Shown here one piece after another: positions 31,674 through 52,131 of a stretch of DNA of 64,000 nucleotides; positions within the stretch are counted from its first letter, which is position 1, and every line of letters starts with the position of its first letter. The position numbers and the translations under genes were made by a program. The notes beneath the pieces are model-generated. The model was not told the origin of the DNA and ran no database searches. It saw only the letters and a program-made list of their open reading frames with translations. The stretch lies in the sequence record SRR16203515_705; one strand, given 5' to 3'.

Positions 31674-31683
31674 CCGTGTTCTC

Positions 31684-34661: not shown

Positions 34662-34712
34662 TGTAAAAAACGCCGCGAACCAATATGAAGGTTCAACAAT
34701 TAGCGAAATCGC

Positions 34713-35903: not shown

Positions 35904-35913
35904 GAGATTGCAG

Positions 35914-36681
35914 TCAAAAGCTCGTGTAACGCACGCCCGTATTAAGTTTTAGATCAGGACGTAACTCCCGAGTCGCTGTTTTACTGCTCAAAGAAGCCAG
36001 AGGTCCTGCGGCATCTTCGAGATCGCCAAATACCAAAGCGTCATGGCCCGCCTCACGACAGGCCTCAACGCAAGCCGGCTGTTGATCCTCGTCAACCCGG
36101 TGCACACACAGCGTACAACTCTCGACGGTGCCCTTCCCACGCGGTGAATGCGTCTTTTGACCCGTCAAATCTTCATGGATAAATGATCGAGCCTGAAAAG
36201 GACACGCCATCATGCAGTAGCGACACCCGATACAAATATGCTTATCAACTAAGACAATCCCGTCTGCTCGACGAAAGGATGCGCCCGTTGGACAGACATC
36301 GACACAAGGCGGATCCTCACAGTGTTGGCAAAGAATGGGGATGGACAATTCGTGACCGGTCTGCTCATCTTTTAAGTCAACCTTTCGGATCCACTGTGCA
36401 TCGGTCTCGGGACGACCATGACCGGAAAGGCCGTGTTCACTATTGCAAGCGGATACACACTCATCACATCCACTCTCACACTTGGCCGTGTCGACCAAAA
36501 GACCCCACCGCTTATCATTGCTCGGAGGACTATCCTCACTGTTCGCCACTGCGAGTTCGACGAGACGCACGCCCGGGGCAAGCGCCATCAGCGAAACCCC
36601 GGCCGCAGCCTGGGTAAAAAAAGTTCGACGTTGTTGAGCGAGTGCGGCGCTTTCGTCTTTTTTCATCGGTTTACACGACAT
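35914..36681 (-). CDS. dsrO: DsrO periplasmic Fe-S protein
   Basis: Tat motif RRTFF, CQHCEDPPCVDVCP, CIGCRYCMMACP, CTLCVH. Start 36681 or 36666. Confidence 0.93.
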   Translation of the reverse strand: MSCKPMKKDESAALAQQRRTFFTQAAAGVSLMALAPGVRLVELAVANSEDSPPSNDKRWGLLVDTAKCESGCDECVSACNSEHGLSGHGRPETDAQWIRKVDLKDEQTGHELSIPILCQHCEDPPCVDVCPTGASFRRADGIVLVDKHICIGCRYCMMACPFQARSFIHEDLTGQKTHSPRGKGTVESCTLCVHRVDEDQQPACVEACREAGHDALVFGDLEDAAGPLASLSSKTATRELRPDLKLNTGVRYTSF

Positions 36682-36701
36682 GATGGCAATTGTCCTACTT
36701 T

Positions 36702-37094
36702 CTAATCTGGGACCGTAGCATGACAGGTAAAACAATCAATCTTCACCGCGGCATAGGTATGACAAGTTTGACAGAACTGTCCCTCGGCATTAATCGGTAA
36801 GAATTCTCCGTCAGTGCCTTTTGACGCATGGCAGTCAATACATCCGGCCAAACTATGCCGCGTCCCGCGAATCCCATGATAAACCGTTTGGTCGCGCTGA
36901 TGCTTGATAAATTCAAAATGATCCCGACGCATAATCTCTATCGGTTCAACGCACTGCGCACCACGCCCCATCGGTACTTCCGGCGTGACAACATCCGCTA
37001 CTGCGGCTCCGGTACTCGAGAGAAGAGTCAAAAAAAGCGCGATTAACCCCGCAATTGAATTACGGTCAAGATTAATCACTGTCGTGCGCTTCAA
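36702..37094 (-). CDS. dsrJ: DsrJ triheme cytochrome c
   Basis: Signal peptide; CVE..MRRDH, CIDCH, CQTCH, CFTCH. Confidence 0.93.
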   Translation of the reverse strand: MKRTTVINLDRNSIAGLIALFLTLLSSTGAAVADVVTPEVPMGRGAQCVEPIEIMRRDHFEFIKHQRDQTVYHGIRGTRHSLAGCIDCHASKGTDGEFLPINAEGQFCQTCHTYAAVKIDCFTCHATVPD

Positions 37095-37105
37095 TCACTC
37101 TGGAC

Positions 37106-39058
37106 CTATTCACCCATACCCATGTCAATATAACCGGTTGGGCAAACATCGGCACAAATATGGCATCCAATACATTTAGAGTAGTCAGTATCAACATAGC
37201 GACCGGTCGTATACTGATCTTTTGAGACCTTAAAAACGGCATCCTGCGGGCAAAAAATAATGCAATTGTCGCACTCAAAGCAAAGGCCGCAACTCATACA
37301 TCGCTCAGCCTCGGATTTAGCTGCATCATCATTTAAGCCGTGATGTCGCTCCTCAAAGTGACCCAGCACTTCTTCTGAGTTCGGTACAGTCGTTGCCCGC
37401 ATATTGCGCGGGGTCTCTTCAAAATGCCCAAGAAATAAACCGTCAGACGGGATAATCTCATGAGCAGAACGGTCTTCGTAGTTATGGACTGCAAAATCTG
37501 CCTCCGCGGTACCCCAAGTCTCGCTATGATCATACGCTCCGGGCGCAAGAGACTGCTCGTTAAGTTTGGCCAGCAGGTCAAAATGATAGACATCTACTTT
37601 AGGTCGTCGACCCGGCGCTTCATCTTTTAAATAGTGATCCACACTCTTCGCTGCAATCGTTGCCTGCCCGATCGCCGTCGTCAACAGATGGGGCCGCACA
37701 ATGTCCCCAGCCACAAAATGACCCTCTCGGTCAGGGACCTGGAAAAAATGATCCGCATCAATAAGTTGCCGCTCGTTCCCCATCTCCTCAATGCCTGAAA
37801 GGTCTCCTGCCTGCCCGATCGCTGACACAATTAAATCGGCTTCCACCTCAAACTCGGTGCCCTCCACCGGCATCGGTACTCCTTTATCATTAAATTGACA
37901 CTTCGCGAGCCGAAGCGCTGTCGCTCGACCATGCTCGTTGCGAACAAGACCAATCGGCAGGACACCGTTAATAATCGTCACGCCCTCAGTCAACGCATCA
38001 TCGACTTCTTCTTCGGTTGCTGTCATGTCTGGACGCTCAAATAGCGCCGTGAGGGTGACCTGCGCACCCTGTCGAGCCGCAACCATGGCAGAGTCATGAG
38101 CCGCGTAGCCGCCAATCACTTCTTCCGGCCGGTCTTTATCGCTAATTTTTTCTATCTTTCCTAACCGGCGGGCAACTGACACCACGTCAATAGACGTATC
38201 ACCACCACCGATACAAACAACACGCTCCGCCGTCACTTTCATCGAGCCTTTGTTGAACGCATCGAGGAACGAAACACCCGAGACACAGTTTGGCGTATCT
38301 TCCCAACCCTCAATCGGTAAATCACGGCCACTCTGGCACCCAACCGCCCAGAGAATCGCATCAAATTCAGACTCGAGTTCAGCAATCGATATATCGGTGC
38401 CGACCCGTACTCCGAAACGGACCTCAATATCGCCTAGCTCTAAAATTCGATCAATCTCACGATCCAATCGCTCTCGTGGCGTACGGTATCCCGGAATACC
38501 ATAGCGGAACATACCGCCGAGTTTTTGCTGCGATTCAAAAATGGTTGATGCGTAACCCAATCGGCGAAGTTGATAAGCACCAGCAAGGCCAGCCGGTCCT
38601 CCTCCAATGATTGCCACGCGTTTATCACAAACTTTTGGCGCTGCCTCAAACCGAAACCCCTCCGCAAATGCGGTATCACCAATAAATTGCTCAACAGAGT
38701 TGATGCCCACAAAGTCATCGACGTTATTACGGTTACAACCGCTCTCACAGGGCGCAGGGCAGACTCGACCCATCATCGCCGGGAAGGGATTTGCGTCAGT
38801 CGCTCGCCGAAAAGCATACTCCTGCCAGGTCATTCCCTCAGGCGGACGCTCCATGCCGCGAACAATTTGTAGCCAGCCGCGAATATCTTCCCCAGAGGGG
38901 CAACTGCCCTGACAGGGAGGCGTTCTGTGAACATAAGTCGGACACTTGTGCGAATTATCCTCATTAAATATTTGTTTTTTAAAGTCCTGCCACTGACTGT
39001 CTCCCTCTTCGTATTTTCGGAAGGTCAGTTTCTGCGCTTGTTCTTCGGAGGCTGCCAT
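37106..39058 (-). CDS. dsrL: DsrL iron-sulfur flavoprotein (probably NAD(H)-type DsrL-1)
   Basis: SHKCPTYV..TPPCQGSCP, GGGDTSIDV with no YRR motif, C-terminal ferredoxin CMSCGLCFECDNC and CIGCHICADVCP. Confidence 0.94.
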   Translation of the reverse strand: MAASEEQAQKLTFRKYEEGDSQWQDFKKQIFNEDNSHKCPTYVHRTPPCQGSCPSGEDIRGWLQIVRGMERPPEGMTWQEYAFRRATDANPFPAMMGRVCPAPCESGCNRNNVDDFVGINSVEQFIGDTAFAEGFRFEAAPKVCDKRVAIIGGGPAGLAGAYQLRRLGYASTIFESQQKLGGMFRYGIPGYRTPRERLDREIDRILELGDIEVRFGVRVGTDISIAELESEFDAILWAVGCQSGRDLPIEGWEDTPNCVSGVSFLDAFNKGSMKVTAERVVCIGGGDTSIDVVSVARRLGKIEKISDKDRPEEVIGGYAAHDSAMVAARQGAQVTLTALFERPDMTATEEEVDDALTEGVTIINGVLPIGLVRNEHGRATALRLAKCQFNDKGVPMPVEGTEFEVEADLIVSAIGQAGDLSGIEEMGNERQLIDADHFFQVPDREGHFVAGDIVRPHLLTTAIGQATIAAKSVDHYLKDEAPGRRPKVDVYHFDLLAKLNEQSLAPGAYDHSETWGTAEADFAVHNYEDRSAHEIIPSDGLFLGHFEETPRNMRATTVPNSEEVLGHFEERHHGLNDDAAKSEAERCMSCGLCFECDNCIIFCPQDAVFKVSKDQYTTGRYVDTDYSKCIGCHICADVCPTGYIDMGMGE

Positions 39059-39102
39059 CGCCGTTCCTCTCCTTTTCATATCAGCCGCGGCTTGCGGCTT
39101 TC

Positions 39103-40599
39103 TTAATGGTCGCTATTAAATACGAGTGCATCACCAATTAATTGGTGAACACTAATAATCATGTCCATGCCCATTCCGTAATGGGGTAAGACTTTCGAAA
39201 ACTGGCTTTTGCATATCGCGCAAATCGCCGCCATATGCGTCACGCCATGAGATTCAATCACCTGTTGGAGCGCTTGCGCGCGCGGTAACGCACCCTTCAC
39301 ACGAAGCTCAATCAGATCATCCGTCAGCAAACCCCCGCCGCCGCCGCAACAGAACGTATGTTCGTGGATCGTATCGGGTGCCATGTCTACAAAATGATTA
39401 CATGCTGATCGAATCAGATTCCGGGGAATCGTAAACTGGCCTCCTGGCGTTGAGCCGAGGCGAGAGCCCCGAGACACATTACAAGAGTCATGAAAAGTAA
39501 CGACTTTATCGTCGTTGGCCTCAGGATCGATTTTCAAACCCCCACTTGCAAGAAGGTCATTAGTGAATTCACAAATGTGTTGGGGCACCGGGTAGGCAGG
39601 ATCTAAAAAATCGAAAGGCCCTATAAGCGTATTCCAAAAACTGTAGGCCACCCGCCACGCGTGCCCGCATTCCCCGACCACAATTCGTTTGACACCAAGA
39701 TCCAGCGCTGCCTGCCGAATCCGCTCGGCAACTTTTTGCATATTCTCGTAGTTGCCGATGAAAATCCCGAAATTAGCCGCTTCAGAAGCATAGGAGCTGA
39801 GTGTCCAGCTTATTCCTGCCTGATGAAAAACTTTTGCATAGCCAATCAATCCATCCACATGGGGTTCAGCAAAGAAATCTGCCGAGGGCGTAACAAGCAG
39901 GACATCGGCGCCTTTCTGGTCAAGCGGAAACTTAACGGGGACGTTAATATCTTCTTCAACTTCTTCTTCAAGGCCTTCAAGCGTATCCGCTAGAGCAGGC
40001 TCTGGCAGGCCAAGATTGTTTCCTATCTTATGAACCTTGCCAATGATTTCGTTGGAATATTTCTGACCCACTCCAATTGTCGCAAGAATCTCACGTCCCG
40101 CCATCGTGATCTCAGCTGTATCGATACCATAGGGACAGTAAACTGAACAACGTCGACATTCCGAACACTGATGGTAGTAGCTATACCAGTCGTTGATCAC
40201 ATCCTCAGAGAGTTCTACCGCACCGACCAGTTTGGGGAACCACTTACCGGCAAGCGTAAAATAACGACGATAGACCTTTCGCATCAGATCCTGTCGGGCA
40301 ACTGGCATATTCTTGGGATCACCCGTGCCCAAATAATAATGACACTTATCAGTACATGCCCCACACTTGACGCAGGAATCCATGAAAACCTGGAGCGAGC
40401 GGTAGCGGCCCAGCAAATCACCCATCTTCTCCAGCGCAACTTCCTGCCAGTTGTCGACTAATTCACCCGGGAATCCAAGTGGCTCCTGATGCGCAGGCTT
40501 TGCGACAAAAGGCTTGCTATGCGCCATCGCATCACGCTGCACTGCTGGCGTACTCAACCAATCCTTCAGTGCAGGCGTTTCAAATTCTATTTTTGCCAT
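39103..40599 (-). CDS. dsrK: DsrK (HdrD-like Fe-S protein)
   Basis: CVKCGACTDKC, CSECRRCSVYCP, GECGH, HDSC, CCGGGGG; start placed at ATG 40599. Confidence 0.95.
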   Translation of the reverse strand: MAKIEFETPALKDWLSTPAVQRDAMAHSKPFVAKPAHQEPLGFPGELVDNWQEVALEKMGDLLGRYRSLQVFMDSCVKCGACTDKCHYYLGTGDPKNMPVARQDLMRKVYRRYFTLAGKWFPKLVGAVELSEDVINDWYSYYHQCSECRRCSVYCPYGIDTAEITMAGREILATIGVGQKYSNEIIGKVHKIGNNLGLPEPALADTLEGLEEEVEEDINVPVKFPLDQKGADVLLVTPSADFFAEPHVDGLIGYAKVFHQAGISWTLSSYASEAANFGIFIGNYENMQKVAERIRQAALDLGVKRIVVGECGHAWRVAYSFWNTLIGPFDFLDPAYPVPQHICEFTNDLLASGGLKIDPEANDDKVVTFHDSCNVSRGSRLGSTPGGQFTIPRNLIRSACNHFVDMAPDTIHEHTFCCGGGGGLLTDDLIELRVKGALPRAQALQQVIESHGVTHMAAICAICKSQFSKVLPHYGMGMDMIISVHQLIGDALVFNSDH

Positions 40600-40618
40600 C
40601 GTGCGAGAGCCCTCACCT

Positions 40619-41356
40619 CTATTCGCTACCTGACCGCGGTGGATCATTCGCCCATGGCGCGACATGCCGATGCTCTCGAGGCGTATCGCGCATATTTCGA
40701 GTCGGACTAAAGAAGACCCCGGGTGCATGCAACAGTTTACTGAATGGAAAAATCAGCATGAGCACCAAAACAAAAGACAAGTGCAGAATTAAAAGTCCAT
40801 CAGATGGCAACGGCTGCCAATCGAAACGCACAAGGCCAAGTGCAAACGCTTTGACAGACACGATATCGGTATGTTGACCATACTTCATCGCAAGACCCGA
40901 TCCTGCAATAGCCAGTAATAGCGCGAGCATCAGATGGTCAGACGGCGCACTGATATATCGAATTCGATCGACCATGAGTCGGCGTAACCAAAGTCCAGCA
41001 AGGCCCAGAAACATCGCAATTCCGGCATAAACACCCGCCCACTGAATCAAAATTACCCACGACCATACCGGCTCTGTAAAGTAGCGTAAGTGGCGCATGA
41101 GCGCGACAAGCATTCCAAAATGAAATAGCCATCCAAACAGCCAACTCCACTTACTCCCTTTGAAAAGACTTTCAAAGAACACCACTTCTCGGAACATCCG
41201 AGCGCAGACCCCCGTTCTGGTGGTCGGGGCGGGGGTCGTGGGGATCACCAGCGGGGCTGGCGTGCGCGAGTATCGCAAAATCCGCTCCCCCAAGCCGACA
41301 AGAAATATTACCGTTGCCAGGTAGAAAAGTATTGCAAAAATTGATCCTAGAAGCAC
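40619..41356 (-). CDS. dsrM: DsrM (NarI-like membrane cytochrome b)
   Basis: PTTPAPTT, FHFG..L.RHLRYF, HL..V..L...FPFSKLLH. Confidence 0.94.
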   Translation of the reverse strand: MLLGSIFAILFYLATVIFLVGLGERILRYSRTPAPLVIPTTPAPTTRTGVCARMFREVVFFESLFKGSKWSWLFGWLFHFGMLVALMRHLRYFTEPVWSWVILIQWAGVYAGIAMFLGLAGLWLRRLMVDRIRYISAPSDHLMLALLLAIAGSGLAMKYGQHTDIVSVKAFALGLVRFDWQPLPSDGLLILHLSFVLVLMLIFPFSKLLHAPGVFFSPTRNMRDTPREHRHVAPWANDPPRSGSE

Positions 41357-41384
41357 AAGCGTAGCGTTGCCGGTTCGAGATAAT

Positions 41385-41413
41385 GAGCGCGATGTTGAAC
41401 TAACGCAGCGCTC
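41385..41413 (-). other. Intergenic stem-loop between dsrC and dsrM (no U tract)
   Basis: Minus strand: GAGCGC-TGCGTT-AGTTC-AACATC-GCGCTC; 6-bp outer stem and imperfect inner stem. Confidence 0.4.
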
Positions 41414-41451
41414 TAATACTGAGCATAAAACTCAATTACTCAAAAACGGTA

Positions 41452-41784
41452 TCAGACGCAGCCTGTTGGCTTTGGAAGACCGGCATACTTACAAGCTTGC
41501 TTGGCGGGTCCATAAGGGAACAATTCGTATAAGTACTTGCTGTTTCCTTTATCTTTACCGAGTTTTTTGCCAATTGCTTTGGTCAAGACCCGAACCGCCG
41601 GGGCAATCTGATATTCGTCATAATACTCACGCAAAAAGTTAATGACTTCCCAGTGATTTTCGTCCAAATCACAATCATCTTCCTTCGCCATATAAGCCGC
41701 CACATCAGCGTTCCACTCGCTCAAATCAGCGAGATAACCCTCTTCATCGACTTCATACGTTCTGCCGTCTAATTCAAATGCCAT
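41452..41784 (-). CDS. dsrC: DsrC sulfur carrier
   Basis: HWEVINFLREYY; C-terminus LFPYGPAKQACKYAGLPKPTGCV with both conserved Cys. Confidence 0.97.
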   Translation of the reverse strand: MAFELDGRTYEVDEEGYLADLSEWNADVAAYMAKEDDCDLDENHWEVINFLREYYDEYQIAPAVRVLTKAIGKKLGKDKGNSKYLYELFPYGPAKQACKYAGLPKPTGCV

Positions 41785-41816
41785 TTTCGAACTCCTCTTT
41801 TGGTGCTAAGTAAAAA

Positions 41817-42119
41817 CTAAAGCCAGCTCTGAACTTTATCGTTCACAGTTGCTAGCTCAACAAATCCATCGTAACCCGTCACTTTTATGCCGGAGATCAG
41901 ACGATCTTCTGAAATGCCGCGGGCCTTTAGATCTGGACCCAGCGCGTAGATTGTCACGTTATTTAACGCTTCCGCGATCGTGTCAGAGTGAATGCTTCCC
42001 GATAACGCGCCATAAACGCCATCTTCAATCAATAATAGATCACTCCCTTGCTTTGCCAGCGAGAGGCAGGTCCTGAGACTTGAAGAATCATGCGGAGATT
42101 TGTTCACAGTGTGTAGCAT
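41817..42119 (-). CDS. dsrH: DsrH
   Basis: MLHTVNKSP, LLLIEDGVY, DLKARG, QSWL. Confidence 0.95.
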   Translation of the reverse strand: MLHTVNKSPHDSSSLRTCLSLAKQGSDLLLIEDGVYGALSGSIHSDTIAEALNNVTIYALGPDLKARGISEDRLISGIKVTGYDGFVELATVNDKVQSWL

Positions 42120-42135
42120 CAGTTAAATCCTCGCA

Positions 42136-42543
42136 TCAGAAATTCAAGATCACATCTTGCGCTTCGAGCAAATCCGAGAGTTGTGCCCGACTCACAATGT
42201 GAATAGATTTTTTTTCAGCCCAGTCGTCGTCTTCATCTTCCCAGGTCAAGGGCATCAAATCATCTTCGTTGAGTCCGCGCTCTTCCAGAGACTCGCGCTC
42301 AACATAAAGACGATTAACTTCATAATCTCCCAGCGCTCGATAAGTCGGCGAGAAGTTTTTCATATCAGAATCAACTGTGTCCTGACCCTGCTTAAGCTGA
42401 AAAACGCCGTCACCAATAAACGCCATACTTACCTCTTGCTCAAATGCGGCACCAATGAGTACCACCTCAAGACCTTCAAGCGCATAAACCGTGCCATAGG
42501 GTGCATGACGGTTGACGTACATAAATTTTTTCGTTTCGCTCAT
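42136..42543 (-). CDS. dsrF: DsrF
   Basis: RHAPYGTVYALEGLEVVLIGAAFEQ, GDGVFQL. Confidence 0.95.
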   Translation of the reverse strand: MSETKKFMYVNRHAPYGTVYALEGLEVVLIGAAFEQEVSMAFIGDGVFQLKQGQDTVDSDMKNFSPTYRALGDYEVNRLYVERESLEERGLNEDDLMPLTWEDEDDDWAEKKSIHIVSRAQLSDLLEAQDVILNF

Positions 42544-42554
42544 CGTCAAATCCG

Positions 42555-42947
42555 CTAATCGCCGAAAACCAAAACACGATCTGACTGAATACCTGCTTCA
42601 ATCAGTTGACCCAGTCCAGAGATTCGGAAACCTGGTGCAATGTTGTCGGCATCTTTACCATTTCGCTTAGCCTCATCGGCATCCAAAATACCTCGACGCT
42701 GCGCGGCGGCCACACAGAGCACGAGATCAAGATCGTGTTCGGCCGCCAATGCACTCCAGCGATTGACAATATTCCGGTCATCCTGAGGCGGTGTTGTCAT
42801 GCGCGTGCCGTTATTAACGCCATCGTGATAGAAGAACACGCGAAAGACCTCATGCCCCGCTTTTAACGCCGCATCGATAAAGTGATACGCCGTATCGGCC
42901 GCCTGATGCGTATACGGTCCCTCGTTGACCATCACCGAAAACTTCAT
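42555..42947 (-). CDS. dsrE: DsrE sulfurtransferase
   Basis: EGPYTHQA, VFFYHDGV, LCVAAAQRRG, SGLGQL. Confidence 0.96.
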   Translation of the reverse strand: MKFSVMVNEGPYTHQAADTAYHFIDAALKAGHEVFRVFFYHDGVNNGTRMTTPPQDDRNIVNRWSALAAEHDLDLVLCVAAAQRRGILDADEAKRNGKDADNIAPGFRISGLGQLIEAGIQSDRVLVFGD

Positions 42948-42956
42948 CTGGCGTCC

Positions 42957-44030
42957 CTAGAAACGAATGTGGGTTGACGCATTAAGGCTTTTTCTCGCGC
43001 CACGCCAGTTATCAATATGGAACTTGGTGAACGGTAATCCCGTCGCCTCAAAAAATCGGGGCCAGCCGATACGATCAATCCAGTCATTAATTCGCTCCCA
43101 ATCCCGCGCATCCTCTTTGTAAGCCTGCAATATCCGCTTCACAATCGCCGTCGCCTCCGGCCATCGTGGCGGATTGTTGGGAACCCCTGATGCCACTAAT
43201 TTTTGAAAACTAGGCTTACTCCGGGCATTCGAATGATTGCCACCCACCCAAATCGCAAGTTTGGTGTGCTCCGGGTCGTTAATCTGCATGGGGGGACATG
43301 GGGGATAGCACGCACCACAGCAGATGCACTTCTTCTCATCCACCTCAAGCGTTGGCTTTCCATTGACCTGTGCAGGTCGAATGGCCGCTACGGGGCAGCG
43401 GGCCACAACCGATGGTCGCTCACAAACATTAGCAACGAGATCATGATTGATCTTTGGCGGTTTGGTGTGCTGAACATTTATCGCAATATCACCTTGTCCC
43501 CCGCAGTTAATCTGACAGCATGAAGTCGTGATGTGGACGCGGTTTGGCATATCACAATTTTTGAACTCGTCGATCAACTCATCCATCATTGCTTTAACGA
43601 CGCCAGACGCGTCCGTTCCTGGGATATCACAGTGCAGCCATCCCTGGGTATGGGAAATCATTGCGACAGAGTTAGCAGTGCCGCCAACAACAAACCCTGA
43701 ATCTTCGAGCGCACTAATTAGAGGATCCACCTTCGACGCATCGGACACCATGTACTCAATATTGCTACGAATCGTAAATCGCACGAAACCGTCGGCAAAT
43801 TGATCGCCAATATCGCAGAGTTTCCGAAGCGTGAACACATCGAGAATTCTTTGAGTCGCCGCTTTCACCGTCCATACCTCGTCTCCACTTTTGGATACGT
43901 GGCGCAAGACTCCCGGCCGCGGGTGATCATGCCAGTCCCAGGAACCAAAGTTCTTAACCATCGAGGGATGCATGTATTGGAAGCCATCCGGGCAACCTGA
44001 TTCGATTGGCTTACGCATTTCTTTAGCCAT
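42957..44030 (-). CDS. dsrB: Reverse dissimilatory sulfite reductase beta subunit
   Basis: HTQGWLHCDIP, SCCQINCG, CICCGACYPPCP, NNPPRWPE; start placed at ATG 44030. Confidence 0.97.
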   Translation of the reverse strand: MAKEMRKPIESGCPDGFQYMHPSMVKNFGSWDWHDHPRPGVLRHVSKSGDEVWTVKAATQRILDVFTLRKLCDIGDQFADGFVRFTIRSNIEYMVSDASKVDPLISALEDSGFVVGGTANSVAMISHTQGWLHCDIPGTDASGVVKAMMDELIDEFKNCDMPNRVHITTSCCQINCGGQGDIAINVQHTKPPKINHDLVANVCERPSVVARCPVAAIRPAQVNGKPTLEVDEKKCICCGACYPPCPPMQINDPEHTKLAIWVGGNHSNARSKPSFQKLVASGVPNNPPRWPEATAIVKRILQAYKEDARDWERINDWIDRIGWPRFFEATGLPFTKFHIDNWRGARKSLNASTHIRF

Positions 44031-44063
44031 AGTTCTCTCCAAAAAATTCTTGTATTAAGCGAA

Positions 44064-45338
44064 TCAACCTGCAGCAGATTGACTTTCTGCCTGACGCTCG
44101 AACCACTTCACCGCCTCTTCATCCCAGCCATCCATTCGTACGTAAGAAGACTGTCGGGGATCAGAAATCATATGAGGATCCACCTCAATTTCGATTCCCT
44201 CTAAGAAGTTGACCAAGCCGATTCGCTCAATCATCTCGCCGCAGCGCTCATGTTCAAGGCCGTTCTCGGCCCAAAAATCAATGGTGTTTTCAGCTATTTC
44301 AGTAATCTTTTCGTAATCCTCTTCAGATTCAAGCTTCATAAAGGGAACAATGACTGTACCCATGAGGTCACCAATCTTTAGCGTACGCTTTCCGCCCATC
44401 AAGATGGTAACGCCCTTGTCTTCTCCAGGCGATAACGCTTTTGGCACCACATTCAGACAGTGCATGCAACGCACGCAATTTCGGTTATCCACTTCCAGCG
44501 AATCATCGTCTTTAAGACTCATGCAGCGTGTCGGGCACCGCGTAATAATGTTATCAATCGTGTGCTGGCGGCCTTTTTCAGACACATATGCCTTCCAAGC
44601 CTCCTGGTCCACTTTCATATCGTCACGCCAGGTGCCAATGACGGCCATATCTGCTCGCTCGATGGAGTTCATGCAGTCATTAGGACAGCCCGACACCTTG
44701 AATTTAAATTTATAAGGAAGCGCGGGTCGATGCACATCATCCGTGAAATTATTAACTAGCGTTCTATGAATCTTGTGTTCATTCGCGCAGGACTGCTCAC
44801 ATCGTGCGGCCCCAACACAAGACATCGCGGTGCGAACACAAGACCCTGCGCCGCCCAGATCGAACCCATAATCATTAATCTCATCGAAAAAATGTTGCGT
44901 GTTATCCGTCGACGATCCGATAAACATGATGTTGCCCGTCTGCCCATGGAACGTAACCAGACCAGACCCCCACTTCTCCCAACTATCAGCGAGTTGTCGC
45001 AGAATGTCGGTGCTATAGTGATTACCGGCAGGGGGCTGAACACGCAGCGTGTGAAACTCTTTTGATTCTGGAAACTGCTGACCCACCTCGGAAAAGCGCG
45101 GAATAATACCGCCCCCATAACCATAAACGCTGACCGTGCCGCCTTTCCAATAGCCTTTGCGGGTCTCATAAGAGTGCTCAAGCTGCCCCAGCAGATCATT
45201 GGCAACCCCATTAATGCGCGCCTCTGGGTGCTCGTCACGGAGGCGTTTGATGCCCGATATAAAACTTGGCCAGGGACCATTTTCGAGCTCATCAAGCATC
45301 GGGGTGTCATGTTGCTTTTTATCAGTCATTTTCGTCAC
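44064..45338 (-). CDS. dsrA: Reverse dissimilatory sulfite reductase alpha subunit
   Basis: TPMLDELENGPWPSF, WKGG, CVGAARCE, YKFKFKVSGCPNDC, CVRCMHC. Start GTG 45338 or ATG 45329. Confidence 0.97.
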   Translation of the reverse strand: MTKMTDKKQHDTPMLDELENGPWPSFISGIKRLRDEHPEARINGVANDLLGQLEHSYETRKGYWKGGTVSVYGYGGGIIPRFSEVGQQFPESKEFHTLRVQPPAGNHYSTDILRQLADSWEKWGSGLVTFHGQTGNIMFIGSSTDNTQHFFDEINDYGFDLGGAGSCVRTAMSCVGAARCEQSCANEHKIHRTLVNNFTDDVHRPALPYKFKFKVSGCPNDCMNSIERADMAVIGTWRDDMKVDQEAWKAYVSEKGRQHTIDNIITRCPTRCMSLKDDDSLEVDNRNCVRCMHCLNVVPKALSPGEDKGVTILMGGKRTLKIGDLMGTVIVPFMKLESEEDYEKITEIAENTIDFWAENGLEHERCGEMIERIGLVNFLEGIEIEVDPHMISDPRQSSYVRMDGWDEEAVKWFERQAESQSAAG

Positions 45339-45484
45339 TATTCCCTTTTATTTCCGGTCGGGTTTGGCTGTGCAGACCTCGCACAACAACTTCACTGCCA
45401 TCGACGGGGCGGGTTCGCAATTACAATGCGACTCTCGGGTCTTCCGCATGCCTTGGTGGAGCGATGGTTTTGAATTCGATGTCC

Positions 45485-45562
45485 ATTTTAAGCCTGGTCG
45501 GGGCAGGCGCCATTCCCACAGGGGGTGACCATTAGAAATTCTGATTTACCCAATAAGGGATA
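45485..45562 (-). promoter_or_regulatory. Putative dsrA promoter: -10 TAAAAT plus two 7-2-7 palindromic sites
   Basis: TAAAAT on the minus strand at 45485-45490; TTCCCAC-AG-GGGGTGA (45513-45528) and TACCCAA-TA-AGGGATA (45547-45562). Confidence 0.5.
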
Positions 45563-45718
45563 GGTTTTATTTTGCAATGCAGAAATTCTGCTTGGGGCCA
45601 AAATCCGTAAAACTATTATTTCTCTATATAAACCAATAATTTAACTATTTTCTGCACCGTTCATATTTTTGACGGCTGCCTATAGATCAAAGGCGCGAGC
45701 CCCACAACTTCTGTTGAA

Positions 45719-45763
45719 TCCGTCTTTTGGGAGAGTTTTATAAATTGTCCCCCTCGTTACAAT
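45719..45763 (+). promoter_or_regulatory. Putative promoter of the tauD-cas6 operon
   Basis: -10 TACAAT (45758-45763) with a degenerate site TCCGTCT-TT-TGGGAGA (45719-45734) centred 31.5 bp upstream. Confidence 0.4.
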
Positions 45764-45783
45764 CTTTCCAACCAAAATCCTAA

Positions 45784-46695
45784 ATGTTTGCCCCTTTGAA
45801 CTTAACTGCATATCAATCGACGTTTACACCGCGCAACCCCGAAGAAAATGTCTTTGCAAATGAGCGTCACTGGGATCACTGGCTTTGCAAATATCGGGAA
45901 TCATTAGAGACACTCGTCGTTGATATCGAAACGCCCGCTCATCTCACAACTCAGGAACGCTCGGCCATTCAGGCTCGACTCAGTAGCGCCAATATGGTGG
46001 TTTACCGATGCGGGTCGTCAGAAGCCGTAAATCGCAACCAGATCGCCCAACTCGCAGAACAGTTCGGCTTGCTTAACCCCACCCACAACCTCTTTGCAGC
46101 AGAAGATGGTCTTAGCGAAATCGAAGTGAAAGCCGATGGACCTTCAAGCCAATACATCCCCTACACCAATCGCGCGCTCAACTGGCATACCGATGGCTAC
46201 TATCGTAGTCACAAAAATCCTGTCCGGGCAATGTTGCTTCATTGTGTGAGGCCGGCCCAGAACGGCGGATCGCTTGAAGCCATAGACTCGCGAGCACTGT
46301 ACGGGCTTCTCAAACAAAAAGACCATCGATTCACCGAAGCGCTTCGGATGCCTGATGTCATGTGGATTCCTGAGAACCAAGCACATGGCGCCAATCGCGA
46401 AGCCTCTTTAGGCCCTGTTTTCTTTTTTGAGAATAACTGTCTTCAGATGCGCTATACCGCTCGAAAACACAATGTCGTTTGGAAAAACACCGTTTTGATC
46501 TCGGAAGCAAAAGACGCGCTCGAAGAATATCTTGAGGACCCCAGTATCCGTTTTAGATATCAACTTCAGGCCGGTGAGGGATTGTTAAGTGCGAATGTAC
46601 CGCATCGAAGAGAACCTTTTTTTGATTCAGACGATCGCGCGGGGCGTTTGATATACCGCGGTCGCTATGCGCAACCGATTTCAACTGAGGCTTAA
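45784..46695 (+). CDS. TauD/TfdA-family Fe(II)/2-oxoglutarate dioxygenase
   Basis: LNWHTDGYY (HxD), LLHCVRPA..GG, NVPHRR (distal His), RxxxRGRY; divergent from dsrA. Confidence 0.85.
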   Translation: MFAPLNLTAYQSTFTPRNPEENVFANERHWDHWLCKYRESLETLVVDIETPAHLTTQERSAIQARLSSANMVVYRCGSSEAVNRNQIAQLAEQFGLLNPTHNLFAAEDGLSEIEVKADGPSSQYIPYTNRALNWHTDGYYRSHKNPVRAMLLHCVRPAQNGGSLEAIDSRALYGLLKQKDHRFTEALRMPDVMWIPENQAHGANREASLGPVFFFENNCLQMRYTARKHNVVWKNTVLISEAKDALEEYLEDPSIRFRYQLQAGEGLLSANVPHRREPFFDSDDRAGRLIYRGRYAQPISTEA

Positions 46696-46701
46696 AAGGC
46701 T

Positions 46702-46896
46702 ATGGACAGCGTACTTTGGATCAGCGAGCTGATTCTGCAAAATCAACCCGCGACTTTCGCCGAACTTACCGATCTGGTTCGCGAACGTGCACGGGCAGGG
46801 GATCGGTTTTTACGGATGGACGTTAAACCGCCTTATCCTGATACGCCCGACAACTGGGAATTCCGGCTCGAAGGCGCCTTCACCAGCCCCGTCTAG
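46702..46896 (+). CDS. Small hypothetical protein (64 aa)
   Basis: Clean ORF with GAGG RBS, tightly packed in the operon; MDVKPPYPDTPDNWEFRLE. Confidence 0.7.
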   Translation: MDSVLWISELILQNQPATFAELTDLVRERARAGDRFLRMDVKPPYPDTPDNWEFRLEGAFTSPV

Positions 46897-46922
46897 CACG
46901 AAACCGGATACCAGAATCTCAG

Positions 46923-47627
46923 ATGAAATATCTTAACAACGAATTTGACCTCGGCGCCGAATCTGAGGAGGACGCGTCAACCTCTGTCGAGGCGCTTGAG
47001 GCCCAGCTTGGCGCGGTAAGAGAAAGATTAAATGAGGCCCAGGCTCAAATTGACGCCCCGCAATGGCGCCAGCTCGCGTTACAGGAAGGCCGCCTTCTCG
47101 TCATGCTCGAAAAAGGCGATGAAGCGTGGTCGAGTGCCAAAATTTGCTTTGACCAATTTTGTAATGCAAAGCTCTGGGCAGACACTGTTGAAGCCGCACG
47201 AATAATGTTCCAGTCGGGGCACTCTGATTCACTTATTGCACTCGGTCACGGCGTCTGGCTCGCAGTAACTTTCCCAGTCGATCCAGAGCTTTCAGTAGCA
47301 CTCCTCCAAGATATCATCGACGAAACACCTGATGACTCTGATGGCGCTGCCGTTGCGGCTGCTGTTGCTGCCTATATTGTTGATCTACGCGCAGAAGGAA
47401 AAGAGCACGAATCCTTGTCTTTTTTTACCAACCAAATGTTGGGTGCAGTCGCCCGTCGACACAGCAGTATTGAAAATCAGGAAGCTTTTGATCAATGGAT
47501 CTCTAGACTCGAATTAAACGACCCCACTCGATTCCTACCGCGCCTCCGAAATGTTGTAGACGTATTAGTACAAGACAACTGGTGGATTGATCGAGAGGCA
47601 ATCCAGGCCGCGTTGCCGATACAGTAA
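46923..47627 (+). CDS. Hypothetical alpha-helical protein (234 aa)
   Basis: Acidic, helical composition; operon-packed; GHGVWLAVTFPVDPEL, RLRNVVDVLVQDNWWIDR. Confidence 0.75.
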   Translation: MKYLNNEFDLGAESEEDASTSVEALEAQLGAVRERLNEAQAQIDAPQWRQLALQEGRLLVMLEKGDEAWSSAKICFDQFCNAKLWADTVEAARIMFQSGHSDSLIALGHGVWLAVTFPVDPELSVALLQDIIDETPDDSDGAAVAAAVAAYIVDLRAEGKEHESLSFFTNQMLGAVARRHSSIENQEAFDQWISRLELNDPTRFLPRLRNVVDVLVQDNWWIDREAIQAALPIQ

Positions 47628-47635
47628 GAATCACG

Positions 47636-48334
47636 ATGTCATCTGCCTACTGGACTGAATCTGAGCTTGAAAAAGCGAAACCGGTAAAACCCGTGGTGGT
47701 TGATGTCGTCTTTAAAATTCGAGGTCGGCAGGTAGCGGCTGATCATGCTTTTGCTTTATCGAAAGCGCTCACAAATGAACTCCCATGGCTTGGCACTGAA
47801 CGAGAGGTCAGTATCCATCTGATCCACGGTGCACAATCCGCTAATGGATGGTGCAAGCCTGATGATAGCGGCATTATCGAGCTTTCAGGTCGAACTCGCC
47901 TTATCATCCGAGTGCCGCACACTCGACTTGAAGACGCAAAAGCCTTAATCGGCGCCAGTTTGAATCTTGACGAGCACAAGATTGAAATACTCGATGCAAA
48001 ACCTCGACCACTTTCAGCCAATTCGACCGTTTTTGCCCACCATGTTCGATCACCGGATGGCACAAATAGTGAACCGGCGTTTTTAGCTTCTGCAGCGCAC
48101 TGGCTAGAAGATCTCGCCATTACGCCCAAAAAAATGCTCTGCGGGGGGATGCGTCATCTAAACATGAATGAATCGGTTATCTCGACCCGGAGTCTTTTAA
48201 TTGCGGAACTTAACCCTACCGAATCCATTGCCGTTCAGACGCACGGGCTGGGACCGGACCGATTATTGGGATGCGGCGTTTTTGTCCCCTCCAAGAGTAT
48301 ATCGGCCGTCCACCAACCGGAATCTGACCATTAA
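47636..48334 (+). CDS. cas6: Cas6-family RAMP protein (type I-MYXAN Cas6/Cmx6-like), orphan
   Basis: VDVVFKIRG..VAADHAFALSKAL..LPWL, LSGRTRLIIRVP, L.G..L.L, and the C-terminal Gly-rich loop QTHGLGPDRLLGCGVFVP (GhGxxxxxGhG). Confidence 0.82.
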   Translation: MSSAYWTESELEKAKPVKPVVVDVVFKIRGRQVAADHAFALSKALTNELPWLGTEREVSIHLIHGAQSANGWCKPDDSGIIELSGRTRLIIRVPHTRLEDAKALIGASLNLDEHKIEILDAKPRPLSANSTVFAHHVRSPDGTNSEPAFLASAAHWLEDLAITPKKMLCGGMRHLNMNESVISTRSLLIAELNPTESIAVQTHGLGPDRLLGCGVFVPSKSISAVHQPESDH

Positions 48335-48365
48335 CACTATAGATACGTTGAAATAGGAATTCATC

Positions 48366-48704
48366 ATGCCAATCGAAGTTGACGGAAAATCAGTTGCCAC
48401 CAACGAAAACGGGTTTCTCGAAAACCCAGATGACTGGAGTCAATCAGTCGCTGAGGCGATGGCAGCCACAGAGGATCTCGCCCTGACACAAGAGCATTGG
48501 GATGTGATTCACTATCTACGAGAAGAGTATTTTTCAAACAACGGGAACCAGCCGAACAACCGAACGTTATTAAAAAAAATGGGGTCTCTTTGGGATCGGA
48601 AAGTGAGCAATAAAGAAATGTTCGATTTATTCCCTGGTAATCCGAGCAAGCAAGCTGGCCGTCTGTCCGGCCTACCCGAAAGTATGCGAAAAGGCGGCTA
48701 TTAA
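48366..48704 (+). CDS. DsrC/TusE-family paralogue lacking cysteines (RspA-type)
   Basis: NENGFL..PDDWS..VA..MA....LT.EHWDVI.YLR, LFPGNPSKQAGRLSGLP; ends ESMRKGGY; no Cys in the protein. Confidence 0.88.
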   Translation: MPIEVDGKSVATNENGFLENPDDWSQSVAEAMAATEDLALTQEHWDVIHYLREEYFSNNGNQPNNRTLLKKMGSLWDRKVSNKEMFDLFPGNPSKQAGRLSGLPESMRKGGY

Positions 48705-48764
48705 CTGCCGCGGCTCGCGGACGACAGAAAGTACGAATTCATATTTTTTTTAAAGGAGAGTTTC

Positions 48765-48968
48765 ATGAGTGGAAAGAAAGAGCTGATCGAAAAAATGATC
48801 GCGATGCAAAAAGCGTTTATTGACCAAGAACAGAACGGAGGCATCAATCCAAAAGATTACTTCGCGCCAGAAGATGGCCACGCGTTAGACGGCTATCGAG
48901 AATCATATGAAAAACTTGCGACACAGGTCGTCGACTTAGCTCATGAGGAGAAGGGCTCAAAGCGCTGA
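48765..48968 (+). CDS. Small hypothetical protein (67 aa)
   Basis: Strong AAGGAG RBS; MIAMQKAFID.EQ.GG...KDYF, VDLAHEEKGSKR. Confidence 0.75.
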   Translation: MSGKKELIEKMIAMQKAFIDQEQNGGINPKDYFAPEDGHALDGYRESYEKLATQVVDLAHEEKGSKR

Positions 48969-48976
48969 GCCTTAAT

Positions 48977-50023
48977 CTAAAGGGCAAGCGCTTCTATCGA
49001 ACATCCCTCAAAAACACCATTCTGCGGCTCACCACTGGCTCGATGTCGCGCCAGGAGCCCGGTGGCCTGACGGCGCCAGTGATGACTTCCTTTGCGCACG
49101 ATTTTTCGCAAGGGTTGAAAATCACCTCCATCAACCCAGCGCTGATAAGCGTTAAATAGCGACGGAAACAATTGCCGGCGAATGCCCGCCATGGTCGCAA
49201 AATAAAAGTGTAAAGGAGATTTTTCTTCCTGACTCAATAACGCCGGCAGCACCATCATGCAATCAGCAAGCAGGTCTCGAACCGCCCGAATCAAAATCTC
49301 TTGTGCTCGGTCGCTGGCCGCCATCACCATCTGATTCCAGTCGTCTCCTAGACACTCTCCGCATATTTTTTCTCCCAATTCATGCAGAATCGCGAACTCG
49401 CTAAATTGCTCAGCCATCCGATCAAGGGCGGTCTCTGGATCCTGACCAAATCCATAACCCGCGAGTGTTCGGGCCATCGCATTTTTAGGTTTTTTCCATC
49501 GCCACTCCTCTATCATCTCCCATAAAACCCGACGAAGCGCTTCTTGCCGAATCCATATCGTGGTGCCGCGCGTCATGGCAGGAGGCGCGATCAGTTCACG
49601 AACAACCTCTTCTCCAGTATAAAAAAGTTCGTACCCGTCTCCTTGCTCAAAAGTGGTGAGGCGACCAAGCGAAAACACCGGTTTATCGAATCGACCAATC
49701 CCTGCGCTGTACCCGTAACCTTGCGGTACAAGCCAGCTGTTGATCTGCTCGATATCAAAAGCATCGACTTCACCCGTCGGCAACGGAATCTTGCGGTACG
49801 ACTGACCTTCCAAGGTGTCCCAATATTGCTCGCGCGCCGATACCCACTCTCCTACCATTCCGGCATCCAGCTTCGCATCGTAAGGTAGATTCTGTTCCCA
49901 CCTAAAGTACTCTCTCATGTGCATTAAATAAACGCATAACGAATAATCACCTGCGTGTTCCGCGTCAGAGAGATCGCAGTTGTATTTGACTGACTCAATC
50001 AACAAATTAGGAAGTGACGACAT
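48977..50023 (-). CDS. Hypothetical protein resembling the Sfum_1244 family
   Basis: NCDLSDA.HAG.YSLCVYL..MREYFRWE, ILHELGE, RAVRDLLADC, LHFYFA; family recalled from memory. Confidence 0.7.
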   Translation of the reverse strand: MSSLPNLLIESVKYNCDLSDAEHAGDYSLCVYLMHMREYFRWEQNLPYDAKLDAGMVGEWVSAREQYWDTLEGQSYRKIPLPTGEVDAFDIEQINSWLVPQGYGYSAGIGRFDKPVFSLGRLTTFEQGDGYELFYTGEEVVRELIAPPAMTRGTTIWIRQEALRRVLWEMIEEWRWKKPKNAMARTLAGYGFGQDPETALDRMAEQFSEFAILHELGEKICGECLGDDWNQMVMAASDRAQEILIRAVRDLLADCMMVLPALLSQEEKSPLHFYFATMAGIRRQLFPSLFNAYQRWVDGGDFQPLRKIVRKGSHHWRRQATGLLARHRASGEPQNGVFEGCSIEALAL

Positions 50024-50063
50024 CTGTAAACCTTAAGATAAAATGGTGGTGGGAAGCAATACT

Positions 50064-50657
50064 ATGGCGACAAGAATCCGCGACCGGTGGCGAAATACCG
50101 GACAACCTGTTCCGCTTGAGGAAAATGCAAAAGCGCTGGCTTACGTATGCTGGCAACTCGCATTAACGTCTGCCCGTAATCTTCATGCGGAGGATTACAT
50201 CTATGATGATGACCAACAACGGGTTGGAGTCATTCGAGAGTATCTGATCTTCCTCGTACACGTCGCGGACCGGCTGGCTTTTGATCTTCTCGACGAAGGC
50301 GATCGGCCCGAGTTTGTCTCTGCACTCGCCTACAATTGCGGGTCGCAACTACAACGAAACGCCAGCGAAATCTTGGGTTCCAGGGATTATCGCGATGCGT
50401 TTATAGCCGCACTTAACGATCGCAGTTCTGATTACGGTCAATGCTCGTTTCAAAGCGGTTTACCGGGCTACAGTCTTCTGCGTGTTTTTGGGGATCGCGT
50501 AAAAGCGATAATGGGGGATGACCAAACCAATCGATGGGTAATCGATCAAGTCATGGAGATTGACGGCCCGGATCTTGCTAAAAGACTTTCGAAGTCGTTT
50601 AGCAACTTGGTCAAAGGCTCATCGGTTGACGAGCCTCGCGATGGATTTTCACCCTAA
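50064..50657 (+). CDS. Conserved hypothetical protein
   Basis: About 197 aa; EYLIFLVHVADR, RWVIDQVMEIDGP. Start 50043 or 50064. Confidence 0.7.
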   Translation: MATRIRDRWRNTGQPVPLEENAKALAYVCWQLALTSARNLHAEDYIYDDDQQRVGVIREYLIFLVHVADRLAFDLLDEGDRPEFVSALAYNCGSQLQRNASEILGSRDYRDAFIAALNDRSSDYGQCSFQSGLPGYSLLRVFGDRVKAIMGDDQTNRWVIDQVMEIDGPDLAKRLSKSFSNLVKGSSVDEPRDGFSP

Positions 50658-50900: not shown

Positions 50901-50945
50901 ATATTACCCTCACCCCAGCTGAACCGGGATATCCCCCTTGGGTGA
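50901..50945 (-). promoter_or_regulatory. Putative promoter with a 7-2-7 site upstream of the Alvin_2107-like gene
   Basis: -10 TAATAT (minus, 50901-50906); TATCCCC-CT-TGGGTGA (50930-50945) centred 31.5 bp upstream. Confidence 0.5.
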
Positions 50946-51018
50946 GAAAGCACTATTTGCGGTATGGTCCTAAAAGCGCCCTAATTAAGAAAAATTGATA
51001 AATATTGAATTTAGATTC

Positions 51019-52131
51019 ATGGATCTCTCGCAAGAAGACAGCCTCAGACTCAACGTTTTGGTCAAAACCTCAGTCGCCATACGGATCGATGAAAATCAAC
51101 TGGTTATTTTTGGTCTCGCCGACAGCAAAGAGCGCAGAATTGATCTCAAACCCTCGGGCAATGCAGGCCAATACCTGCGTCTCATTCGCGAACACCTTTC
51201 GAACCTCGTGCTCGGAACGCCCGGTGGCTACCCGGTGTTTATTCAACGCTGGACCCGAAGTGGCGCGCTTGGCGCTGAACGACTGAGCAAATTACTTTGC
51301 CTCGGTGAAACAGAGGCTGTTGTTGCTGTTGCCGCGTCACCGAACATTACTGACACGTTAGCAGGTCGAGCATGGTGGTGCCTCCCAACTGCAGAAGTGG
51401 CGCGTCTCATGTTGCGTCGAAGTCAAGTCATCAAAGGCCAAACCGGTCCCCCGCTCGCGCAGTTTTTGCTTGAATATCTCCCGTTCGAAATTGAAAGCAC
51501 GGTCATCATTCAAACCGTGCAAATTCTGCTCGTCTCGGAACTGATTGATCAATCTGAAAAAGCCCGACTCTGGGCCAGAGGGCAAAAAAATGCCGCCTAC
51601 CTTATCGGTTTCCTGAGCGCAGGCCCTGAATATATGATTCAAACTGATCATCAAAAATCCGTCGGAATAGCGGACCTGGCCAAACCGTCCAAAACTTTTG
51701 CCCAGCACATTGAACGCGCCCTCTCACAAACAGGGAAACAATATCTTGAGGGTTGCACGCGCGCGCTGCGAACCGCAACCGATATGGACTCTGTCGTCGA
51801 AACGTTGGAAGCGTTGCATCGATTTCTCATGCCAATTGCAGACACCCCACAACTCCCTCGGACACCTCATTTGCTGCGTATTGCCGCTCGCGAGCGTTTT
51901 AATTGAGCCGCCTCTATATTTGATGATGAAGAGTTCGCCTTTATCCTTAGTCGCTATTCTGAATCCGATATCAAAGCGATAATCTTACTCAGCCTTGTCG
52001 GTGAGCCCCTCGTGGCGCCCATATTTGCCATCACTGATGCGAGCGGTAGTCTGATGCGAAAAAAACTCGCCCCCGCGCTCGATCCTGCGTTTGAAGCAAT
52101 CAAAGCGCTCGGCATCGCGGAGAATGACTAG
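51019..52131 (+). pseudogene. dsrS: dsrS interrupted by one in-frame TGA (51904-51906)
   Basis: MDLSQEDSLRLNVL..AIRIDE, LGTPGGYPVFIQRWTR, LGETEAVVAVA..., RAWW. The same frame continues after the TGA (...PIFAITDASGSLMRKKLAP...END*) to TAG 52131. Confidence 0.8.

Follow-up and report, generated by a model that had tools for sequence, protein, structure and literature searches.

A Cas6-family protein is the constant core of a gene module that accompanies the reverse Dsr pathway next to dsrA in Gammaproteobacteria

In marine Gammaproteobacteria, whether free-living or symbiotic, the oxidation of sulfur has the reverse Dsr pathway (rDsr) as its central route. We analysed a stretch of 64,000 nucleotides (nt) of the sequence record SRR16203515_705, called the window hereafter, which carries a complete oxidative-type dsr cluster and, divergent from its first gene dsrA, six co-directional open reading frames (ORFs), g1 to g6, referred to as the module. 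These six genes are a local, unusually complete version of a set that is inherited with oxidative dsr across the Gammaproteobacteria, and the constant core of this set is g4, a protein of the Cas6/Cmx6 family that has left CRISPR (clustered regularly interspaced short palindromic repeats). The closest named public record is 'Arenicellales bacterium nBUS_45', with 97% identity at g4. The module and the dsr genes are laid out as follows.

33264-45338, - strand: dsrABEFHCMKLJOPN, complete oxidative-type cluster, by family identification of each dsr gene
41452-41784, within the dsr cluster: DsrC proper of the window, with the arm cysteines
44064-45338, - strand: dsrA, first gene of the dsr cluster (TIGR02064, 638 bits)
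45339-45783: divergent control region common to dsrA and g1, 445 nt
45784-46695, + strand: g1, Fe(II)/2-oxoglutarate oxygenase of the TauD/TfdA family, dsrQ-type, 303 amino acids (aa), PF02668
46702-46896, + strand: g2, small protein without known family, 64 aa
46923-47627, + strand: g3, all-alpha helical-repeat protein resembling tetratricopeptide repeat (TPR) proteins, 234 aa
47636-48334, + strand: g4, RAMP protein of the Cas6/Cmx6 family, 232 aa, PF09559 and TIGR02807
48366-48704, + strand: g5, cysteine-free paralogue of the DsrC/TusE family, 112 aa, PF04358
48765-48968, + strand: g6, protein without known family, 67 aa

The spacer between dsrA, on the - strand, and the six ORFs, on the + strand, measures 445 nt, and the gaps from g1 to g6, calculated from the ORF coordinates, are 6, 26, 8, 31 and 60 nt. 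A preliminary description of this DNA had reported six co-directional ORFs with gaps of 6-60 nt that share a divergent intergenic region with dsrA, and all its coordinates are confirmed by the ORF list. Its statement that only three ORFs have a recognisable family also stands: g1, g4 and g5 match Pfam and NCBIfam models, and g2, g3 and g6 match none.

We investigated the co-occurrence of the module with dsrA in 400 gammaproteobacterial genomes evenly drawn from the GTDB class (the class sample). The queries were a profile of the Cas6-like gene (g4 and its homologues), the dsrA family model and a g1 profile, with identical genomes drawn each time; the dsrA search covered 401 genomes, one of which (G288) is unscored in the two other searches. 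dsrA was found in 127/401 genomes. The Cas6-like gene is present in 125/400, including G348, an unpublished genome that entered this count only; it accompanies dsrA in 120 of the 127, leaving 5 genomes with the Cas6-like gene only and 7 with dsrA only. In the same way, g1 is present in 125/400 genomes and in 120/127 with dsrA, with 5 genomes having g1 only and 7 dsrA only. The uncharacterised module accompanying rDsr that the preliminary description had proposed is borne out, as each of the two genes occurs in 120/127 dsrA-positive genomes against 5 of the 273 dsrA-negative ones. Related genomes are not independent; therefore, Fisher P values overstate the association. We nevertheless regard the association of the module with rDsr as hardly in doubt.

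Most of the exceptions were traced to particular causes. Among the genomes with a Cas6-like gene and no dsrA, G062 carries a true type I-B CRISPR locus, and in G173, G208 and G298 the module lies at a contig end, where dsrA is expected. In six of the seven dsrA-only genomes the contig ends inside dsrA or less than about 900 nt upstream, one of these broken contigs showing a g1 fragment at the break. G280 is the sole dsrA-only genome with an intact upstream region yet no Cas6-like gene. A phylum-level draw, dominated by non-sulfur families, gave Cas6-like matches in only 5/401 genomes.

The gene neighbourhoods, of up to 19.7 kb, were annotated with our own profiles around 119 of the 125 Cas6-like matches of the class sample, omitting the near twin of the window (G001), G348 and the contig-end fragment matches of G068, G172, G204 and G399; presence was counted for each gene at the loci with enough flank. 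Where the locus reaches 6 kb or more beyond the Cas6-like gene on the upstream side, dsrA lies directly upstream and divergent in 79/95. In the eligible loci g1, g2 and g3 are present in 75/103, 76/103 and 42/103, and g5 and g6 in 87/115 and 52/115; a non-adjacent g1 is usually found elsewhere in the same genome. The commonest orders are 1-2-3-4-5 (26 loci) and 1-2-4-5-6 (24 loci). In the class sample g3 and g6 are nearly mutually exclusive, and the window is unusual in carrying both. Among ten same-order loci from several families, the Cas6-like gene and g6 are divergent from dsrA in 10/10, with g1 in 8, g2 in 9, g3 in 7 and the cysteine-free DsrC in 5. Two genomes of 1.1 Mb (G228 and G387) keep genes 1, 2, 4, 5, 6, 8 and 9 beside dsrA (g7 to g10, which follow the module, are listed below). 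Three further, distant lineages from the phylum-level draw have the arrangement dsrA / 4-5-8-1, with g8 inside the module and divergent adjacency in 3/3. The linkage to dsrA therefore survives rearrangement of the gene order. g5 is genuinely absent from G121 and from two complete genomes, G420 and G053, and DsrQ is missing, with the Cas6-like gene kept, from G121 and G094. Synteny and presence profile thus agree that the genes are grouped well beyond chance and co-conserved with dsr, and they are far from equally common in genomes lacking rDsr.

The g4 protein matches PF09559 with an E-value (E) of 1e-54 and TIGR02807 with 113 bits (cut-off 98.85). It is homologous to the type I-B and I-MYXAN Cas6 proteins (PF09559, TIGR02807, 8fcj_B) over its full length, and its family profile aligns along the length of the solved type I-B Cas6 8fcj_B (E 1.5e-23), with the G-rich loop aligned. 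Its open frame is intact, and the alignment of 131 homologues from more than 100 families has about 40 columns with a conservation of 85% or higher; His37 is kept in 130/131, and G71, W72, R86, R92, G204, G206, G212 and G214 are near-invariant. Binding of nucleic acid by g4 is plausible. Unlike the type I-B and I-MYXAN Cas6, g4 has neither a CRISPR array nor cas1 and is fixed beside dsrA: no tandem CRISPR repeat array was found in the 64-kb window, and no cas1 in the nearest complete genomes (G001 and G006) or in the two 1.1-Mb genomes (G228 and G387). G357 does contain a cas1, elsewhere in the genome than its Cas6-like gene.

The type I-B locus of G062 (L145), which comprises a WYL regulator, Cas6, Cas3, Cas8b and a 36-nt repeat present 21 times, holds the nearest CRISPR-linked relative that we found for the dsr-linked family. 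Its Cas6 reaches E 1.5e-33 with the Cas6-like profile, against 1e-59 or better for the full-length dsr-linked matches. Unlike the CRISPR-linked Cas6, g4 thus belongs to a separate, high-scoring subfamily, and its invariant His37 stands in place of the Asn of 8fcj_B. In public databases proteins of the g4 type are named 'type I-MYXAN CRISPR-associated protein Cas6/Cmx6'. Seven long Cas6-like frames were considered as fusions and rejected, the additional length being upstream read-through with no second domain. Away from dsrA, the Cas6-like gene was seen divergent from rnc-era (RNase III) at two loci of one family (L136 in G192, L144 in G358), and beside genes for a SpoU rRNA methylase (L079), for Trm112 and a YeeE-type sulfur transporter (L120) and for a TauE sulfite exporter (L109).

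The g1 protein matches PF02668 (E 4e-18, 66.7 bits, cut-off 27) and its HxD...H metal triad is intact: H135-x-D137 is kept in 93/98 homologues and H274 in 98/98, together with several arginines, R288 in 97/98, and H135, D137, H274 and R288 are invariant in a 35-row alignment. An assignment as taurine dioxygenase was rejected, as g1 scores 17.8 bits with NF007104 against an equivalog cut-off of 313; it also stays far under the equivalog cut-offs for TmpA, BBOX and TMLD. The closest NCBIfam models are those of trimethylammonium-substrate hydroxylases, at only E 1e-6 to 1e-8. The statement of the preliminary description that none of the six is a named dsr gene has to be withdrawn for g1. Like the published dsrQ, it is of the TauD family and is transcribed divergently from dsrA in sulfur oxidisers, and a passage of PMC7596348 reports that the tauD-like gene divergent from dsrA was named dsrQ by Lenk et al. 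2012. 'DsrQ/DsrU (unknown functions)' are listed in a passage of PMC6018796. The passages on dsrQ in these two papers concern this gene only and mention no Cas6-like gene, cysteine-free DsrC, small ORFs or dyad. As far as such passages go, dsrQ is the only module gene that we found already known in print. In a literature search of the main texts of openly accessible papers, no published link of the Cas6 homologue, of the KGGY-tailed DsrC or of the dyad described below to dsr was found.

Members of the DsrC family called RspA are reportedly Cys-less and possibly regulatory. The g5 protein matches PF04358 (E 8.5e-32, 110 bits) and TIGR03342 (96 bits, cut-off 53.5) and contains zero cysteines. 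Like the members of the family, named DsrC/TusE/RspA in a passage of PMC8477390, it has the DsrC fold-family domain and a flexible arm starting with GLP. In the alignment with the window's DsrC the arm-cysteine positions are occupied by Gly and Lys/Gly, and the arm of g5 is 2 residues longer. Without both arm cysteines, no DsrC trisulfide or persulfide is possible. The C-terminal arm reads GLPES(R/M)RKGGY, with RKGGY in 26/26 aligned paralogues, and the KGGY tail, which true DsrC lacks, is retained in the three distant lineages too. That a flexible tail is so conserved argues that it may still enter a partner pocket or may itself be modified.

For g2 and g6 no PDB sequence match was found, and a PDB search of g3 gave no function. 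The AlphaFold model of g2 (predicted local distance difference test, pLDDT, 93.6) has a beta-alpha-alpha-beta-alpha fold whose best structural match reaches merely Z 4.4; S8, L22, D40, P43, P49, W52, E53 and E57 are invariant. The model of g3 (pLDDT 89.7) contains 11 helices and gave no Foldseek match at E<=0.001. Its best matches with VIA-align are TPR proteins at Z of about 11, where helical repeats need about 13, so that only a generic helical arrangement is indicated; its lead in the ESM Atlas scores only 0.83 and gave no function. The ESM Atlas matches of g6 are only clusters of 'hypothetical protein'.

Five close relatives share 86% identity in the spacer between dsrA and g1, which contains invariant blocks. 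Rfam gave no family in 30000-58000, and promoter and terminator scans gave nothing above shuffles. In the k-mer counts of 94 dsrA-module spacers, GGGATA/TATCCC and TGGGGTG are well over shuffles, and they combine, in the direction of the module, to TGGGGTG-N17-TATCCC-N4-GGGATA. The dyad at 1 mismatch or less has 71 copies in the 2.16 Mb of fetched loci against 3-7 in shuffles, a 10- to 20-fold excess, and 58/71 copies lie between dsrA and g1, g2 or g4. At 2 mismatches or less it is present in 78/94 spacers, in most cases 17 nt past TGGGGTG. Five near-complete genomes have 1-2 exact copies each, the dsrA site being always included, and a reversed control pattern has 0 copies in the same genomes. 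The dyad persists without g5 (G420, G053, G121) and without DsrQ (G121, G094); therefore, the Cas6-like gene is the only module gene that is always found with the dyad at the loci examined. This dyad in the control region shared by dsrA and the module is new here. The window itself holds the following elements.

45521-45527: GGGGGTG box beside the dyad
45547-45562: degenerate dyad copy TACCCAATAAGGGATA, with 2 mismatches, the main site in the window

With 4 dyad matches at 2 mismatches or less against 1.67 expected, the dyad is not significant in the window alone, and the signal comes only from the cross-genome comparison. Among the double variants of the dyad, 7/20 change both halves symmetrically (TATCTC...GAGATA, TACCCC...GGGGTA). 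A perfect CTACCC-GATC-GGGTAG was seen in the dsrA to Cas6-like spacer of a distant lineage (L169 in G741), where all three outer pairs differ symmetrically around an unchanged CCC/GGG core. Residues of the Cas6-like protein that co-vary with the dyad were looked for, and the candidates were rejected, the best P values of 7e-5 to 3e-4 being uncorrected, partial and confounded by relatedness.

Additionally, we noted several sites related to the dyad. A second motif, CCC-N4-GGGATA(TGG), occurs in the g5-g6 spacer; it is weaker, asymmetric and mostly in the direction of transcription, with matches at 1 mismatch or less in 11/41 spacers forward, 5/41 reverse and 1/41 shuffled (L044, L050, L052, L062, L063, L065 and L068 are among these loci). 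In the dsrA direction a box CACCCCAT stands beside the dyad, 17 nt after GGGATA, in spacers of L028-L102 (e.g. L032, L045, L062); we take it to resemble a sigma-32-type -10 element. Extra exact dyads outside dsr were seen between Sel1-repeat and porin-like genes (L153 in G203) and before atpI, beside parB (L154 in G085); a dyad regulon based on these extra sites was rejected, as they are too few. The k-mers found downstream of dsrB, dsrA and g4 were rejected as signals, as most of them stem from the coding sequence that follows.

In metatranscriptomic libraries of 3 studies, contigs with 90-100% identity were found for each of the six genes. The contigs bridge g1-g2-g3 (46635-47303), g3-g4 (in three runs), g4-g5 (48278-48637) and g4-g5-g6 into g7 (48269-49028); most of the spacer is uncovered in 2/4 runs. 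This pattern is compatible with expression as an operon. The co-transcription supposed in the preliminary description thus receives weak support from the junction-bridging contigs.

The small proteins encoded by dsrR and dsrS reportedly act post-transcriptionally. DsrD is described as an allosteric activator of reductive DsrAB in PMC8794893. Like dsrR and dsrS of Allochromatium vinosum and like dsrD, the module may provide small non-catalytic proteins that accompany dsr and tune the pathway; unlike them, it has no sequence relation to these proteins in Pfam and NCBIfam and lies on the opposite side and strand from dsrN/R/S. We tentatively propose, as a possible reading, that the set controls dsr as a dedicated device, with a domesticated Cas6 at its centre and three steps of action. 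The Cas6 would recognise the dyad in one of two forms, a short GC stem-loop in a leader RNA, as with a CRISPR repeat, or DNA, and this binding would set how abundant or how stable the transcripts of dsr and of the module are. The DsrC mimic g5, carrying no sulfur, would dock via its conserved arm on a partner of DsrC, i.e. DsrAB, DsrEFH or DsrMK. DsrQ would supply a modification that depends on O2 and 2-oxoglutarate and would report the oxygen status. The proposal draws on the constant presence of the Cas6 homologue with dsrA and the dyad at the loci examined, on the short GC stem, four-base loop and conserved flanks of the dyad, which have the general shape of a Cas6 substrate, on the cysteine-free DsrC, which has the look of a decoy or a sensor directed at a partner of DsrC, and on the intact Fe/2-oxoglutarate oxygenase, a natural oxygen reporter. 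The dsr-pathway genes of a related symbiont are, moreover, oxygen-responsive according to a passage of PMC8269255. The link of O2/2-oxoglutarate status or of DsrC partner occupancy to dsr expression or maturation, suggested in the preliminary description, is speculation that is compatible with the intact triad and the dyad.

Several observations weigh against such a control function. Among the one-sided variants of the dyad, 15 break a pair and 11 are wobble-compatible on the module strand. Since pair-breaking changes are as common as wobble-compatible ones, the pattern speaks for a DNA operator of an unlinked dimeric regulator over an RNA hairpin, and co-evolving half-sites recognised by a dimeric DNA-binding protein would account for the variants no worse than an RNA stem would. 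None of the residues of the Cas6-like protein follows the dyad variants convincingly, and the near-invariant His37 pairs with an Asn in 8fcj_B, which bears on nuclease activity. G280 has a perfect dyad before dsrA in an assembly that is 92% complete, in which no Cas6-like gene was found. All loci were selected via the Cas6-like gene, so that its constant presence with the dyad is partly circular. The window has only a degenerate form of the main dyad and lacks the second site, that of the g5-g6 spacer. Contigs of RNA libraries may derive in part from DNA and are no proof of a single transcript. Finally, retention in tiny symbiont genomes as easily fits structural or assembly factors.

The last point leads to a somewhat unlikely explanation, according to which the module proteins build or protect the rDsr machinery and do not control it. 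Here g5 would be a placeholder in DsrAB or DsrMK while these are assembled, g3 a chaperone that holds the C-terminal tail and DsrQ the enzyme of a post-translational or cofactor modification, the Cas6 fold being a mere protein scaffold. The near-obligate co-occurrence with dsrA and the persistence in 1.1-Mb genomes, where regulators usually go first, would be expected of such factors; the TPR-like, peptide-binding type of fold of g3, the invariant free C-terminal tail KGGY of g5 and the intact triad of the oxygenase also agree with it. However, the conserved dyad of the control region and the retained G-rich loop of Cas6 are left unexplained, g3 is missing from 61/103 loci and g5 from complete genomes with Dsr oxidation genes, and an O2-dependent maturation would be problematic under anoxia. 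The same triad, together with the TauD/TfdA family of g1, could point to a catalytic feeder, in which DsrQ, assisted by its neighbours, supplies Dsr by freeing sulfite or by acting on an organic sulfur carrier, for instance a sulfonate. Release of sulfite from sulfonates by DsrQ has been speculated upon in a passage of PMC7596348, and sulfur transport genes (YeeE-type, TauE) adjoin several of the solitary Cas6-like loci. We hold this function for quite unlikely: by its NCBIfam score (17.8 bits, cut-off 313) g1 falls outside the taurine dioxygenases and its nearest models act on trimethylammonium substrates, a need for sulfonates is unlikely in chemoautotrophs whose genome measures 1.1 Mb, DsrQ is lacking in G121 and G094, which have retained both the Cas6-like gene and the dyad, and no role is left for the Cas6 homologue or for the thiol-less DsrC.

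It is extremely improbable that the Cas6-like gene is a decayed CRISPR remnant with no functional link, in a neighbourhood inherited with dsr as a frozen accident. Its public CRISPR name and the non-independence of related genomes would suit this explanation, which is opposed by the intact open frame with its 40 or so conserved columns over 131 homologues, by the linkage kept in distant lineages where the order is permuted, by the absence of cas1 and by the much lower score of a true CRISPR Cas6 (E 1e-33 against 1e-59 or better). Returning to the control device, a bolder form of it, which we consider unlikely, is that Cas6 was domesticated once, early in the gammaproteobacterial sulfur oxidisers, as a housekeeping, sequence-specific binder of a CRISPR-repeat-like CCC-N4-GGG stem-loop of the dsr control region and would form, with the DsrC decoy and the O2-dependent DsrQ, a post-transcriptional oxygen/sulfur switch acting on what is the ocean's main pathway of sulfur oxidation. 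If true, this domesticated-Cas6 switch would be the first CRISPR-independent core-metabolic role of a Cas protein.

A gene set whose link to dsrAB is as faithful as that of dsrEFH, and which persists in genomes reduced to 1.1 Mb, means that the accepted pathway or its control is incomplete; the textbook version of the Dsr pathway, or of its control, is therefore probably missing parts. In sulfur oxidisers, thousands of proteins are annotated as 'CRISPR-associated Cas6/Cmx6', a label that probably misstates their function. Oxidative-type Dsr could be recognised in metagenomes by the Cas6-like gene, dsrQ and the KGGY-tailed DsrC paralogue, and the dyad is a concrete handle on the poorly understood regulation of dsr. 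These points are of relevance for sulfur microbiology and for the exaptation of Cas proteins.

Beyond g6, four further genes precede soxB, soxA, soxY and soxX in the window.

48977-50023, - strand: g7, DUF6866/Sfum_1244 family, by family profile
50043-50657, + strand: g8, 204 aa
50666-50953, - strand: g9, Alvin_2107 family, by family profile
50995-51906, + strand: g10, 303 aa

Following the module, g7 is found in 38/86, g8 in 41/86, g9 in 27/86 and g10 in 16/86 eligible loci. A dyad copy with 2 mismatches, TATCCCCCTTGGGTGA, is located at 50930-50945, which is between g9 and g10 if g9 starts at an internal Met, as suggested by its match to the Alvin_2107 family at residues 35-91; one comparable dyad match is present in the g9-g10 gap in the locus set. 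At the other end of the dsr cluster, genes for a NarQ-like histidine kinase and a NarL-like response regulator (31008-32751) lie directly beyond dsrN, the position that is occupied by dsrR and dsrS in A. vinosum according to a passage of PMC3368242. A gene for the sulfur carrier DsrE2 (NF047629, 283 bits) is located at 59843-60322, past the sox genes and about 11 kb from the module.

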